Part shown: positions 5,949 to 13,780 of the stretch, piece by piece | How positions within the stretch are numbered: position 1 is the stretch's first letter | Layout: every line of letters begins with the position of its first letter | IMG/VR virus record: IMGVR_UViG_3300029862_000313 | DNA length: 15,072 nucleotides | Direction: 5' to 3' (one strand) | From: a virus | Lineage: Duplodnaviria > Heunggongvirae > Uroviricota > Caudoviricetes | The notes under the pieces: model-generated | Told to the model about the DNA's origin: nothing | The model's input: the letters and a program-made list of their open reading frames with translations, nothing else | The model's database searches: none | Program-made: the position numbers and the translations under genes

Positions 5949-6017
5949 AATTGACTCCTTTAGTTTGAATTGACTGTTAAGTTGATTGCTTATTGTTAAA
6001 GAGCGTGAAATGGAAAT

Positions 6018-6248: not shown

Positions 6249-6352
6249 AACAACCTCCGTGGTTAATCCGAATCAAGATTAAAACTATGGTTGTTTTTAG
6301 TCAACAACCATTTTCGTTTGATGAAATAAAACCTTGGTTGTACATTTGATCT
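6249..6352. promoter_or_regulatory. OR-like operator/promoter region between divergent cro-like and cI genes
   Basis: Inverted repeat ATGGTTGTT-N6-AACAACCAT at 6287..6310. Additional AACAACC/GGTTGT motifs at 6249..6255 and 6334..6340. The same ACAAC/GTTGT half-sites recur at the OL-like region near 7784..7847. Confidence 0.6.
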
Positions 6353-7042
6353 ATGAAAACAACACTCTCAGAAAGACTTAAAGAAGCCAGATTAGCGCGA
6401 GGCCTTACACAAAAGGCGCTTGGGGATTTGGTCGGGGTTAGCCAGGCTGCTATTCAGAAAATCGAAACAGGGAAAGCTAACCAAACAACTAAAATCGTGG
6501 AGATCGCGAACGCTTTGGGTGTGCGCGCAGAATGGTTATCTTCTGGCGTTGGAAATATGTCAGACAGTACAGTGCAACCAATACAATCAACTGTCAGCCA
6601 TTCCAAATACTTCAAAATTGACGTTCTTGATATAGAAGTCAGTGCCGGGCCAGGTGTAATCAACCGTGAGTTTGTAGAAGTTCTACGCTCGGTTGAGTAC
6701 TCGTTTGACGATGCTCGTCACATGTTCGATGGCAGGAAGGCGGAAAATATCCGCATCATTAACGTGCGAGGTGACAGCATGTCAGGGACGATCGAACCAG
6801 GTGACCTGCTGTTCGTTGATATCACTGTTAAATCTTTCGACGGTGATGGCATCTATGCGTTTCTGTACGACGACACTGCCCATGTAAAACGTCTTCAAAT
6901 GATGAAGGATAAGCTGCTGGTTATCTCTGATAACAAGAGCTACTCGCCGTGGGACCCGATCGAGAAAGACGAGATGAACCGGGTGTTCATATTCGGTAAG
7001 GTCATTGGAAGCATGCCGCAGACGTACAGGAAGCATGGTTAA
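6353..7042 (+). CDS. cI: CI-type prophage repressor, N-terminal HTH plus C-terminal S24 (LexA-like) autopeptidase domain; not lambda immunity
   Basis: 229 aa. HTH (LTQKALGDLVGVSQAAIQKIETG), candidate Ala-Gly cleavage site (EVSAGPG), Ser nucleophile in GDSMSGTIEPGD and Lys in HVKRL. Unlike remembered lambda cI. Confidence 0.85.
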   Translation: MKTTLSERLKEARLARGLTQKALGDLVGVSQAAIQKIETGKANQTTKIVEIANALGVRAEWLSSGVGNMSDSTVQPIQSTVSHSKYFKIDVLDIEVSAGPGVINREFVEVLRSVEYSFDDARHMFDGRKAENIRIINVRGDSMSGTIEPGDLLFVDITVKSFDGDGIYAFLYDDTAHVKRLQMMKDKLLVISDNKSYSPWDPIEKDEMNRVFIFGKVIGSMPQTYRKHG

Positions 7043-7271
7043 TTTATCTACGACTTAAGGGAGCGAAGGTTAAGGTTTATACCACTCGGATTAGATATTG
7101 CACTAAATTCTCTATAAGAACGCCAAATCTGTTTGCATATTTCAGTAAATATTCTCGTTGTTAGCTGAGATTTGTTGCTACTGTCAGCAAAATGTCCCCC
7201 TATCTCGTAGCGGTTTTTATTTCGAATCATTATGTTAAGATGTTTCTGATTATAATGAATGGAAACATAAA

Positions 7272-7652
7272 ATGAGAAAAATCCTAATCGCTGCCATGAT
7301 GGCATCTGTATTGGCTGGGTGTGCTTCTTCAGGCAACCAGCAACTCAAAAATGAAACTGAAATTAGTGTCCAGTCTAAACTTCAGGAAGGTAAAACAACC
7401 AAGAATGAGGTTAAATCTTACTTTGGTTCTCCTGATGCTGTTTCATATACTGACAGTGGAAACGAGATCTGGAAGTACGCCTTTGCAAAAGTAAAAGTTA
7501 ATGGCACCACTTTTATTCCATTCTATGGATTATTCCATAATGGAACGAACGGTACGAAAAAAGAACTTACTATTCTTTTTAACGATGACACGATTAAGAA
7601 ATACACAATGTCAGAAACCCAAATAAACTCGAAATCAGGTTGGGCTGACTGA
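7272..7652 (+). CDS. Lipoprotein of unknown function, 126 aa, in the rexAB/sieB-equivalent position downstream of cI
   Basis: Signal peptide with lipobox LAGC (Cys18). Preceded by a 229-bp AT-rich spacer and followed by a hairpin terminator. Low GC relative to neighbouring phage genes. Confidence 0.7.
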   Translation: MRKILIAAMMASVLAGCASSGNQQLKNETEISVQSKLQEGKTTKNEVKSYFGSPDAVSYTDSGNEIWKYAFAKVKVNGTTFIPFYGLFHNGTNGTKKELTILFNDDTIKKYTMSETQINSKSGWAD

Positions 7653-7660
7653 TAATCATA

Positions 7661-7690
7661 CCCGGCAACCGCGCCGGGTTTTCTTTTCCT
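7661..7690 (+). terminator. Rho-independent terminator after the lipoprotein gene
   Basis: CCCGGC (7661..7666) pairs with GCCGGG (7673..7678), followed by TTTTCTTTTCC. Confidence 0.7.
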
Positions 7691-7779
7691 CCCCCTCATA
7701 ACTCATACCGTCCAAAAAACCACCACACCTCACTTCAGTTATCGCTATGCGATGCAAGTCACAAAATAAATCCATCCTA

Positions 7780-7860
7780 AATACAACCAGTTATATTTAA
7801 AACAACCGACAAAACAACTTTTGTTGTTGACGATAAAACAACTATAGTTTTAAATAAATT
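7780..7860 (+). promoter_or_regulatory. OL/pL-like operator-promoter region driving the early operon toward gam-bet-exo
   Basis: Operator-like repeats ACAACC (7784..7789, 7802..7807) and palindrome ACAAC-TTTT-GTTGT (7814..7827). Candidate -35 TTGACG (7827..7832) with -10 TTAAAT (7850..7855) at 17-bp spacing. Orientation matches the downstream + strand early genes. Confidence 0.5.
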
Positions 7861-7910
7861 CATCGCAACGACACAACGATACGGTAACCACCTGTTTCAC
7901 CGTTGCGATG
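7861..7910 (+). promoter_or_regulatory. Structured 5' leader: perfect 10-bp inverted repeat (CATCGCAACG ... CGTTGCGATG) with 30-nt loop, immediately downstream of the pL-like promoter
   Basis: 7861..7870 is the exact reverse complement of 7901..7910. Further GC-rich self-complementary segments follow to about 8045 (e.g. GTCGC-N9-GCGAC at 8025..8043). Function not established. Confidence 0.35.
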
Positions 7911-8132
7911 ACCGCTTAGATCCGCAGTTTGAATTTCAGCAGGCTTCGGGGAGTGCGAGGGGTGAAGCGGACGCGTGAACGTCGGTGTGACCAGCTGAAA
8001 TCAACTCAACACTTCATACCTCAGTCGCTTCAACGAGGCGACTTAGTTATGACAACCGGCGGCCATCCACCGCCTGAATACGCGCAGAAGTCTCTATATG
8101 TTCAGCAGCCCAGCTTACGGGCAGGAGTTTTT

Positions 8133-8339
8133 ATGGTTCATCAACATTACGGAACGCAGACCGTTAATCGAGGTGCGGTCATGCCAGGAATGCTGGTCAA
8201 ACACAAAGATGGTACCTGGACTGCATCAGCTAATTTACGCGGACGGCTTTATCTGCATCGCGGCATCGAGCGCACTTATACCCGTGATTTGCTCGTGGAA
8301 GTTTTTCTCGACGGACGCGGTAACGGCCTGAATCGCTAA
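8133..8339 (+). CDS. Hypothetical early protein (68 aa from the AGGAG-associated start; the ORF is open from 7929, 136 aa)
   Basis: Strong RBS AGGAG (8123..8127) 5 nt before ATG at 8133. Occupies the position of lambda N..kil but shows no similarity to either. The stop at 8337..8339 abuts the point where lambda-like sequence resumes (8340). The longer ORF has an Arg-rich N-terminus but no evident RBS. Confidence 0.35.
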
Positions 8340-8414
8340 TCCCCTTTCCTGTTTTCCTAATCAGCCTGGCATTTCGCGGGCGATATTTTCACAGCCATTT
8401 TCAGGAGTTCAGCC

Positions 8415-8711
8415 ATGAACGCTTATTACATTCAGGATCGTCTTGAGGCTCAGAGCTGGGCGCGTCACTACCAGCAGATCGCCCGTGAAGAGAAAGAGGC
8501 AGAACTGGCAGACGACATGGAAAAAGGCCTGCCCCAGCACCTGTTTGAATCGCTATGCATCGATCATTTGCAACGCCACGGGGCCAGCAAAAAAGCCATT
8601 ACCCGTGCGTTTGATGACGATGTTGAGTTTCAGGAGCGCATGGCAGAACACATCCGGTACATGGTTGAAACCATTGCTCACCACCAGGTTGATATTGATT
8701 CAGAGGTATAA
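8415..8711 (+). CDS. gam: Gam, RecBCD nuclease inhibitor (short GamS-length form, 98 aa)
   Basis: Near-identical to the C-terminal 98 aa of remembered lambda Gam ([21 protein letters not shown]...). Upstream DNA from 8340 matches the lambda gam leader, but the long-form N-terminus is replaced. Confidence 0.93.
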
Positions 8712-8716
8712 AACGG

Positions 8717-9502
8717 ATGAGTACAGCACTCGCAACGCTGGCTGGGAAGCTGGCTGAACGTGTCGGCATGGATTCTGTCGACCCACAGGAACTGATCACC
8801 ACTCTTCGCCAGACGGCATTTAAAGGTGATGCCAGCGATGCGCAGTTCATCGCATTACTGATCGTTGCCAACCAGTACGGCCTTAATCCGTGGACGAAAG
8901 AAATTTACACCTTTCCTGATAAGCAGAATGGCATCGTTCCGGTGGTGGGCGTTGATGGCTGGTCCCGCATCATCAATGAAAACCAGCAGTTTGATGGCAT
9001 GGACTTTGAGCAGGACAATGAATCCTGTACATGCCGGATTTACCGCAAGGACCGTAATCATCCGATCTGCGTTACCGAGTGGATGGATGAATGCCGCCGC
9101 GAACCATTCAAAACCCGCGAAGGCAGAGAAATTACGGGGCCGTGGCAGTCGCATCCCAAACGGATGTTACGGCATAAAGCCATGATTCAGTGTGCCCGTC
9201 TGGCCTTCGGATTTGCGGGTATCTATGACAAGGATGAAGCCGAGCGCATTGTCGAAAATACCGCATACACTGCAGAACGTCAGCCGGAACGCGACATCAC
9301 TCCGGTTAACGATGAAACCATGCAGGAGATTAACACTCTGCTGATTGCCCTGGATAAAACATGGGATGACGACTTATTGCCGCTCTGTTCCCAGATATTT
9401 CGCCGCGACATTCGCGCATCGTCAGAACTGACACAGGCCGAAGCAGTGAAAGCTCTTGGATTCCTGAAACAGAAAGCCACTGAGCAGAAGGTGGCTGCAT
9501 GA
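8717..9502 (+). CDS. bet: Bet (Red-beta) single-strand annealing recombinase
   Basis: 261 aa, near-identical to remembered lambda Bet ([59 protein letters not shown]...). Confidence 0.97.
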
Positions 9503-10179
9503 CACCGGACATTATCCTGCAGCGTACCGGAATCGACGTGAGAGCTGTCGAACAGGGGGATGATGCGTGGCACAAATTACGGCTCGGCGTCATCACCGCT
9601 TCAGAAGTTCACAATGTGATAGCAAAACCCCGCTCCGGAAAAAAGTGGCCTGACATGAAAATGTCCTACTTCCACACCCTGCTGGCTGAGGTTTGCACCG
9701 GTGTGGCTCCGGAAGTTAATGCTAAGGCGCTGGCATGGGGAAAACAGTACGAGAACGACGCCAGAACTCTGTTTGAATTCACTTCCGGCGTGAATGTTAC
9801 TGAATCCCCGATCATCTATCGCGACGAAAGTATGCGTACCGCCTGCTCTCCCGATGGTTTATGCAGTGACGGCAATGGCCTTGAGCTGAAATGCCCGTTT
9901 ACCTCCCGGGATTTCATGAAGTTCCGGCTCGGTGGTTTCGAGGCCATAAAGTCGGCTTACATGGCCCAGGTGCAGTACAGCATGTGGGTGACGCGAAAAG
10001 ATGCCTGGTACTTTGCCAACTATGACCCGCGTATGAAGCGTGAAGGCCTGCATTATGTCGTGGTTGAGCGGGATGAAAAGTACATGGCGAGTTTTGACGA
10101 GATGGTGCCGGAGTTCATCGAAAAAATGGACGAGGCACTGGCTGAAATTGGTTTTGTATTTGGGGAGCAATGGCGATGA
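9499..10179 (+). CDS. exo: Exo (Red-alpha) 5'-3' exonuclease
   Basis: 226 aa, near-identical to remembered lambda Exo ([43 protein letters not shown]...). Overlaps the bet stop. Confidence 0.97.
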
Positions 10180-10358
10180 CGCATCCTCACGATAATATCC
10201 GGGTGGGCGCGATCACTTTCGTCTACTCCATTACAAAGCGAGGCTGGGTATTTCCCGGCCTTTCTGTTATCAGAAATCCCCTGAAAGCACAGCGGCTGGC
10301 TGAGGAGATAAATAATAAACGGGGAGCTGTATGCACAAAGCATCTCCCGTTGAGTTAA
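10170..10358 (+). CDS. Lambda orf60a-like small protein
   Basis: 62-aa ORF ([31 protein letters not shown]...) directly after exo, as in the lambda orf60a position. Confidence 0.75.
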
Positions 10359-10522
10359 GAACGAGTATCGAGATGGCACATAGCCTCGCTCAAATTGGAG
10401 TCAGGTTTGTGCCAATATCAGTAGAAACAGACGAAGAATTTCATACGTTAGCCGCATCCCTTTCACAAAAGCTGGAAATGATGGTGGCGAAAGCAGAAGC
10501 AGATGAGAGAGACCAGGTATGA
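10331..10522 (+). CDS. Lambda orf63-like small protein
   Basis: 63-aa ORF in the lambda orf63 position; overlaps neighbours in the compact lambda-like arrangement. Confidence 0.7.
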   Translation: MHKASPVELRTSIEMAHSLAQIGVRFVPISVETDEEFHTLAASLSQKLEMMVAKAEADERDQV

Positions 10523-10598
10523 CAACCACTGAATGCATTTTTCTGGCAGCGGGCTTCATATTCTGTGTGCTTATGCTTGCCGACATGGGGCTTGTTCA

Positions 10599-10814: not shown

Positions 10815-10912
10815 ACATGAAAAGCAAAATCATCAGGGAGCTACAGGCTCCTTTTTTATTATTCGCATTCACCCTCAAGCGTATTAACCAACAATTCAGG
10901 GATTAATGAAAG

Positions 10913-13528: not shown

Positions 13529-13558
13529 GAACCCGCCGAGTGCGGGTTTTCTTTTATC
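13529..13558 (+). terminator. Rho-independent terminator
   Basis: AACCCGC (13531..13537) pairs with GCGGGTT (13543..13549), followed by TTCTTTTAT. Confidence 0.6.
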
Positions 13559-13598
13559 TGAACTCGCTACGGCGAGTTTTGTTTTATGGCGATGATAA

Positions 13599-13766
13599 AT
13601 GCACTTCCGAGTTACAGGTGAATGGAATGGAGAACCATTCAACAGAGTTATCGAAGCCGAGAACATCAGCGACTGCTATAACCACTGGATGCTGTGGGCG
13701 CAGATAGCACATGCAGACGTAACCAATATTCGAATTGAAGAACTGAAAGAACACCAAGCCGCCTGA
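13599..13766 (+). CDS. Small ORF, 55 aa, in the lambda orf55 position just upstream of xis
   Basis: My translation is MHFRVTGEWNGEPFNRVIEAENISDCYNHWMLWAQIAHADVTNIRIEELKEHQAA*. Below the 60-aa track cutoff. Weak RBS. Confidence 0.4.
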   Translation: MHFRVTGEWNGEPFNRVIEAENISDCYNHWMLWAQIAHADVTNIRIEELKEHQAA

Positions 13767-13780
13767 TGGCGGTTTTTTCT
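13756..13780 (+). terminator. Hairpin plus T-run terminator immediately upstream of xis
   Basis: GCCGCC (13758..13763) pairs with GGCGG (13768..13772), followed by TTTTTTCTT. Confidence 0.55.

Follow-up and report, generated by a model that had tools for sequence, protein, structure and literature searches.

A probable KilR/phi80-type kil gene at an ordinary lambdoid module boundary, with a conserved RNA hairpin in its leader

The small gene directly upstream of gam in this lambdoid early region is very probably kil of the Rac KilR/phi80 Kil family and, by homology, would encode an inhibitor of host division. The border between this gene and the lambda-type sequence that follows is an ordinary lambdoid module boundary located at a gene border, and it represents a standing combination that is the commonest in E. 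coli. Upstream of the gene lies an untranslated leader containing a conserved RNA hairpin and a nearly invariant 26-mer, and this leader module is the one feature here without an existing explanation.

The window, the whole stretch of 15,072 nt analysed in this work (IMG/VR record IMGVR_UViG_3300029862_000313), is the early region of a lambdoid prophage or phage. An ORF map and family scans placed a lambdoid early-left operon on the + strand in the order pL, an untranslated leader of ~270 nt, kil, gam, bet and exo, the last two being the lambda Red genes that lie downstream of gam in the same operon. Among the window ORFs and annotations, no N, ral, sieB, cIII or lambda-type kil was found between the pL-like promoter and gam. 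Positions 7700–8420 are represented by 100% identical DNA in prophages of several complete E. coli genomes, 7650–8720 is 99.3% identical to phage PhiR26_1, and identity to phages Turner, IdasGreatGrand, 4A7 and Perceval (genus Bievrevirus) is about 92–97%. The features of the window are as follows.

ORFs 2454–2128 and 2131–1241 (−): IS3-family insertion sequence in the prophage right arm, recognized by its overlapping ORFs and ALIL pseudoknot
2057–2173 (−): ALIL frameshift pseudoknot (Rfam RF01497, 120 bits), between the two overlapping ORFs
5948–5409 (−): YdaT-like gene
6248–6018 (−): cro-like gene (ORF map/family scans)
6353–7042 (+): cI-type S24 repressor gene (ORF map/family scans)
7272–7652 (+): lipoprotein-like gene in the rex position, with a terminator at 7660–7689
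7827–7855 (+): pL-like promoter, −35 TTGACG at 7827–7832, 17-nt spacer, −10 TTAAAT at 7850–7855
7862–8132 (+): untranslated pL leader, ~270 nt, without an N gene, from alignments that show no conserved reading frame
8020–8046 (+): conserved RNA hairpin of 11 pairs with its triloop at 8032–8034, from covariation
8049–8074 (+): nearly invariant 26-mer ATGACAACCGGCGGCCATCCACCGCC, opening a possible upstream ORF MTTGGHPPP...
8108–8127 (+): small GCCC/GGGC hairpin at 8108–8122 followed by the Shine-Dalgarno sequence AGGAG at 8123–8127, found by eye in the sequence
8133–8339 (+): probable kil of the KilR/phi80-Kil type, 68 aa, predicted host division inhibitor, from profile and pairwise matches
8336–8340 (no strand): module boundary, lambda-type sequence starting at the kil stop codon, from blastn and pairwise alignment
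8340–8414 (+): lambda-type gam leader, Shine-Dalgarno AGGAG at 8403–8407, in-frame TAA at 8358–8360
8415–8711 (+): gam, 98 aa (GamS length), RecBCD inhibitor, PF06064, near-identical to lambda
8717–9502 (+): bet, ORF with 97.7% lambda identity, annotated in identical and near-identical records
9499–10179 (+): exo, lambda Red gene, ORF with 97.7% lambda identity, annotated in the same kinds of record

The product of the gene at 7272–7652 has a lipobox-type N-terminus, a weak BamE-domain match and a place in PHROG 3135 (function not assigned). With its own terminator, this lipoprotein gene looks like a ‘moron’ expressed in the lysogen.

Identity and start of the gene upstream of gam

The 68-aa ORF matched PHROG 294, annotated as ‘Kil protein for bacterial septation inhibition’, with E = 1.7e-37, residues 1–67 aligning to positions 13–79 of 83 in the profile. 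The same profile is matched by Rac KilR (7.5e-35), phi80 Kil (4.8e-30) and HK225 Kil (1.7e-34). A second profile, NCBIfam NF008465 (‘FtsZ inhibitor protein’, PRK11354), was matched with 62.1 bits and E = 3.6e-17, a score that does not reach the curated cut-off of 92 bits, so that the protein is placed as a relative of Rac KilR outside the narrow Rac-KilR subfamily. Pairwise comparison gave 40% identity to phi80 Kil over 65 aa (E = 5e-15) and 36% identity to Rac KilR over 61 aa (E = 9e-13), and a five-way alignment of Kil proteins was collinear from Met1 with 17 invariant columns (M1, H5, G7, T8, R13, V16, P18, G19, H24, T28, S32, A33, Y40, D52, V57, L59 and G63). Like genes of the KilR/phi80-Kil family, the ORF belongs to the early-left operon and is flanked by the immunity region on one side and the recombination genes on the other. 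Any activity of this protein on FtsZ or MreB is suggested by its 36–40% identity to these relatives, and no solved structure was found for it.

The gene had been described in the earlier note as novel and uncharacterised, which does not hold given its membership of the PHROG 294 Kil family and the names it already carries in RefSeq and phage records. RefSeq/PGAP lists it as ‘phage encoded cell division inhibitor protein’ (WP_000233577.1, 68 aa), and E. coli 582, with identical DNA, is annotated with this accession. The annotation in phage Perceval reads ‘FtsZ inhibitor protein Kil, phage phi80 Kil homolog’, and PhiR26_1 and 4A7 have ‘Kil’. Public annotation thus already covers the gene, the family and the arrangement. 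The ORF probably seemed novel because Pfam gives no match, either for the 136-aa or for the 68-aa translation (none at E ≤ 10 for the latter), the family being without a Pfam model. Lambda Kil gave no BLASTP alignment to the 68-aa ORF at E ≤ 100, and its Pfam model PF06301 was not matched; the lambda Kil families, PF06301 and PHROG 3924, are distinct from PHROG 294.

Two frames ending at 8339 are open in the window, one from TTG 7929 (7929–8339, 136 aa) and one from ATG 8133 (8133–8339, 68 aa). The strong ribosome binding site described earlier, AGGAG at 8123–8127, is present 5 nt ahead of ATG 8133. Distant DNA homologues (mEp237, SEN34 and several Klebsiella phages) aligned from exactly 8133 (position 434 of a query starting at 7700), and position 1 of the NF008465 profile falls on M1 of the 68-aa form. 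Phage D2 has the window-type leader up to 8132–8135 and then a lambda-type kil, and in phage PhiR30_1 the run of T immediately ahead of the ATG is one T longer, which breaks the upstream frames. The frame from TTG 7929 is open in 24 of 52 related loci, the window included, and interrupted in the other 28 by in-frame stops (one example, at the position of 8022, being CTTAG in place of CTCAG), by length changes of 1–2 nt or by an insertion of 5 nt. From ATG 8049 the frame runs into kil in 47 of the 52 loci and is broken in five. On this comparative evidence the predicted start of kil is fixed at ATG 8133, and the 136-aa translation is not taken as a gene product.

Public records disagree on the start of kil, giving products of 68, 96, 125 or 139 aa (records compared: L001, L002, L003, L012, L013, L015, OM475428 and OM475430), and comparison settles this disagreement in favour of the 68-aa form. 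PhiR30_1 is annotated with a shifted 207-nt ‘Kil’, and two records misname the gene ‘membrane carboxypeptidase’.

A longer real product, of 96, 125 or 136 aa from ATG 8049, GTG 7962 or TTG 7929, would add an arginine-rich N-terminal extension (VKRTRERRCDQLK) that could be read as an N antiterminator-like RNA-binding arm fused to Kil. The frame open from 7929 in the window, the in-frame entry from ATG 8049 in most loci, the 96-, 125- or 139-aa versions in some GenBank records and a superficial likeness of the arginine-rich stretch to N-protein motifs, seen on reading the translation, all favour such a product. Nonetheless it is very improbable and already largely refuted, since fewer than half of the loci are open to 7929 and five also break the 8049 frame, homologues outside this phage group all start at the position of 8133, and in D2 this leader is followed by an unrelated kil. 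Moreover, past codon 9 of the 8049 frame the peptide varies between phages while the nucleotides are conserved, and residues 1–59 have no Pfam, NCBIfam or PHROG match. An N-like arginine-rich protein in the long frame was accordingly rejected as a candidate, given the interruption of the frame in 28 of 52 relatives and the lack of a family match there.

It is likewise highly unlikely that the prophage carrying the ORF is defective and the ORF itself an unexpressed passenger, silent or in decay. The E. coli 582 prophage, whose copy is 100% identical, does carry IS21 and IS2 insertions and ninE and ren pseudogenes, an IS3-family element is found in the window itself, and toxic kil genes are normally held silent (PMC5793797). 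However, the 68-aa frame is intact in thousands of genomes at 90–100% identity and in complete phage records including the PhiR series, Perceval, 4A7 and Turner, and it is preceded by a consensus AGGAG with 5-nt spacing.

With the gene read as kil, derepression of pL would lead to transcription of the operon, and Kil would block host division, with FtsZ rings disturbed and possibly MreB too. Gam would then inhibit RecBCD, and Bet and Exo would carry out recombination.

The boundary between kil and gam

Comparison of the window with lambda by blastn returned one segment, 8336–10527, corresponding to lambda 33190 down to 31000 at 97.7% identity, where the 31000 end is the edge of the lambda piece compared. 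No lambda match was found by blastn upstream of 8336, and pairwise alignment superimposes the window TAA at 8337–8339 on the stop codon of lambda kil (TAA), the sequences preceding it being unrelated. Matches of the window to Stx phages such as 933W also begin at 8333–8336. The abrupt start of lambda-like sequence at about 8340, after the stop codon of an unrelated ORF, is therefore borne out by the blastn start at 8336, and the reading as lambdoid mosaicism stands, homology changing sharply where kil stops and the gam leader begins. Replacement of the lambda N-to-kil segment, as had been described, is correct in that this lambda stretch is absent. It does not extend to a loss of kil. Because a KilR-type gene lies in the lambda kil slot, kil was swapped for a non-homologous analogue and not lost.

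Only a GamS-length Gam had been reported to remain, and the length is confirmed at 98 aa, a longer form being excluded by the in-frame TAA of the leader. The implied truncation is not supported, because the Pfam Gam model itself has 98 positions and PF06064 was matched over 1–98 of 98 (E = 3.4e-65, 216.8 bits against a cut-off of 25). A Gam of 98 aa is the family norm. GamS comprises residues 41–138 of lambda Gam and is the form present in the solved RecBCD complex, and GamS and GamL each inhibit RecBCD (PMC5218532).

The frequency of the boundary was determined among 5426 complete E. coli genomes using a 201-nt probe centred on the junction (8240–8440, coverage ≥80%) and an equivalent probe for the lambda border. 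The window-type junction was present in 2167 genomes (about 40%) and the lambda-type kil–gam junction in fewer, 1387, and 16 phage records cover at least 80% of a 7650–8720 probe. An arrangement found in about 40% of complete E. coli genomes makes the finding an ordinary one, and the commonest Red-operon context in E. coli prophages is one with a KilR-type kil, not a lambda-type kil, and without an N gene. The recombination at gam of the earlier note, taken as a singular and recent event in which a new gene came in, kil was removed and gam was truncated, could draw on the sharp homology break against lambda at 8336 and on an ORF without a Pfam match, but it is refuted by the family matches and the junction frequency and can be dismissed with near certainty, given the same junction in 2167 genomes and 16 phage records, a named gene family with experimentally studied members (PMC12482147) and a Gam of full length by its family model.

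Phage D2 (L014 1001–2013) represents a natural hybrid, with the window-type leader, a lambda-type kil (47 aa) and a 138-aa GamL-type ORF. Its second exchange point lies exactly at the kil start codon.

The pL leader and its conserved hairpin

The pL-like promoter sits inside operator repeats shared with the OR region, the operator AAAACAACTATAGTTTTAA at 7835–7853 being 95% complementary to 6279–6297 beside cro/cI. Transcription from pL and the start of the transcript are predicted from the sequence. Alignments showed the leader to be common to at least three immunity types, a second of which has a different promoter and the same leader from about 7863, while a third joins the leader at about 7900. 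The folding energy of the whole leader is not unusual (z = −0.72). At the gathering threshold, Rfam returned only the IS3-type frameshift pseudoknot across the whole window, and at E ≤ 10 over 7840–8160 only a chance CRISPR-repeat match (E = 1.2). In other phages, three alternative blocks were seen by eye before the Shine-Dalgarno sequence, each with a short stem.

A CA-rich stretch, CAACGACACAACG at 7867–7879 (+), lies where the transcript predicted from pL has its 5’ end and reads CAACAACACAACG in the 4A7 type. It resembles, perhaps by coincidence, the consensus CACAACA of GcvB R1 targets, of which AgvB, an anti-sRNA of prophages, makes use (PMC4104026).

The local hairpin at 8020–8046 is the only fold supported in the leader, its sequence shifting between phages with the pairing kept. 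It was examined in an alignment of 101 covariance-model matches with 45 distinct sequences (A5), in which realignment to the covariance model replaced a MAFFT alignment that had set one hairpin type off by one column. Hairpin cells were paired in 90.8% of cases versus 76.9% in shuffles, none of 500 of which reached the observed value; two-sided changes occurred in 7 of the 11 pairs, and the covariation score was 0.394 versus 0.176. Since the alignment had been fitted to the model, these counts are biased in its favour; slid controls and single-sequence folds agree with them. Sliding the partner lowered the pairing to 32–50%, and of 37 variants folded as single sequences, 36 gave −6 to −16 kcal/mol and one −4.8, with shuffles at about −4. 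A GAGG at 8035–8038 lies within the 3’ arm of the hairpin.

Downstream of the hairpin, the 26-mer occurs once in the window, where no copy is expected by chance, and neither a second copy nor a pR counterpart was found there. An exact-pattern scan found the module in more than 120 IMG/VR contigs with 97 distinct contexts. When eight codon-third positions were left free, the scan returned 15 true sites in species-representative genomes (Enterobacter, Citrobacter, Scandinavium and Trabulsiella), with an identical 26 nt in 14 sites and a single change in one. The block at 8013–8074 is also found in phi80, HK225 and many Enterobacter phages, and the following copies of the module were located.

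L005 3001–3058: phi80
L006 3001–3065: HK225
L007 2999–3077: ENT1

In phi80 the module lies just past N and the intrinsic terminator tL1A and is unannotated. Its usual site is just after the first early-left terminator, in a layout consisting of a variable intrinsic terminator, CATACC, the hairpin, GTT, ATGACAACCGGCGGCCATCCACCGCC, a variable spacer, GCGCAGAAGTCT..., one of three stem and Shine-Dalgarno blocks and the ATG of a variable first gene. A full-text search of the literature for the peptide MTTGGHPP and for the 26-mer in either orientation gave no result, and for the module no Rfam family and no description in the searchable literature were found.

Beyond codon 9 of the upstream ORF, both frame and peptide vary between phages, and in the window this ORF runs into kil. 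Given the invariant third-codon positions, the varying frame and a divergent copy in IMG/VR contig L109, the constraint on the 26-mer looks to be at the level of nucleotides and not of the peptide. A PPP stalling peptide as the object of selection is weakened by the same three observations. Contig L109 has two copies of the module, at 7267–7309 and 6666–6708 (−), flanking an N-like gene, and the first has a divergent post-AUG sequence, ATGAAACGGCTATCCAACCGC, that does not encode the MTTGGHPPP peptide.

The hairpin, the 26-mer opening with an AUG and the hairpin before the Shine-Dalgarno sequence might together form an undescribed cis-acting RNA cassette that gates the first gene after the early terminator, a proposal made tentatively and one that may well prove wrong. 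In this phage the gated gene would be the toxic kil. Control could be exerted over the start of translation at the AUG, whose GAGG lies hidden within the hairpin, or alternatively through Rho loading, for which C/G of up to 1.8 over 7992–8082 (about the 93rd–95th percentile of the window) is a weak hint. If the cassette is regulatory, it would be a new RNA element in one of the best-studied regions of gene control.

Comparison with known systems

For this group of phages, which lack N, the leader is also a possible source of antitermination that does not depend on N. Terminator-like hairpins with T-runs are present at 10835–10853, 13529–13549, 13560–13579 and 13756–13775 (+) in the early-left operon, upstream of xis/int, and the phage has no recognisable N gene. 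The pR and pL leaders have in common only a 13-nt string, AATCAACTYAACA, at 5987–5975 and 7999–8011. The pR transcript contains GCTCTTTAACAA at window 6004–5993 (−), between cro and the YdaT-like gene, which we take to match the boxA consensus of ribosomal operons. This boxA-like sequence and the shared string could bear on antitermination without N.

HK022 is likewise an N-less lambdoid phage, in which transcripts from PL start with putL (PMC9378689), and the conserved RNA of the window also begins at or near the predicted start of the pL transcript. The window differs in having no second related RNA copy in its pR leader and no Rfam match. HK022 putL and putR were both compared with the leader by alignment, and a put-like antiterminator RNA was rejected as a homologue, since the local score of the leader against putL, 27, was not above shuffles (20.4 ± 3.7, maximum 35).

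Rac KilR of E. coli K-12 (b1352, 73 aa) shares PHROG 294 with the window Kil, and both are small basic proteins with a glycine-rich tail encoded in an early-left operon upstream of recombination genes. The window Kil is 5 aa shorter at the C-terminus, where KilR has an unstructured tail reported to be functionally important (PMC12482147). In Rac, kilR is followed by ydaE/racC/recET, whereas the window kil is followed by gam/bet/exo. Rac also has an annotated small RNA, KilS, upstream of kilR, with no evident counterpart in the window. KilS (b4833; L011 6406–6503 (−)) lies about 175 nt upstream of kilR and has no evident similarity to the window leader beyond a short GGGAGUGCG string. Silencing of kilR runs through NusG and Rho (PMC5793797). 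At low expression KilR causes loss of the Z-ring and at high expression mislocalisation of MreB, and its effect is fully suppressed by extra FtsZ (PMC12482147). Within the KilR/phi80-Kil family, the block of Z-rings and its relief by FtsZ are known for Rac KilR only (PMC12482147, PMC5793797).

The Kil of phi80 (PHI80_42, 69 aa) belongs to the same PHROG, and phi80 also carries the hairpin and 26-mer module. There, an N gene and tL1A come before the module and two further ORFs lie between it and kil, whereas in the window the module directly precedes kil, without N.

Lambda Kil (47 aa, PF06301) occupies the same slot, the stop codons of the two genes aligning to the nucleotide before the gam leader, yet the proteins have no detectable sequence similarity and belong to other Pfam and PHROG families. 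FtsZ has been reported as the target of both the lambda Kil and the KilR families (PMC3961180, PMC12482147), although lambda Kil is ZipA-dependent and leaves MreB undisturbed, and KilR differs on both counts (PMC12482147). The alternation of two unrelated division inhibitors in one slot is textbook lambdoid mosaicism.
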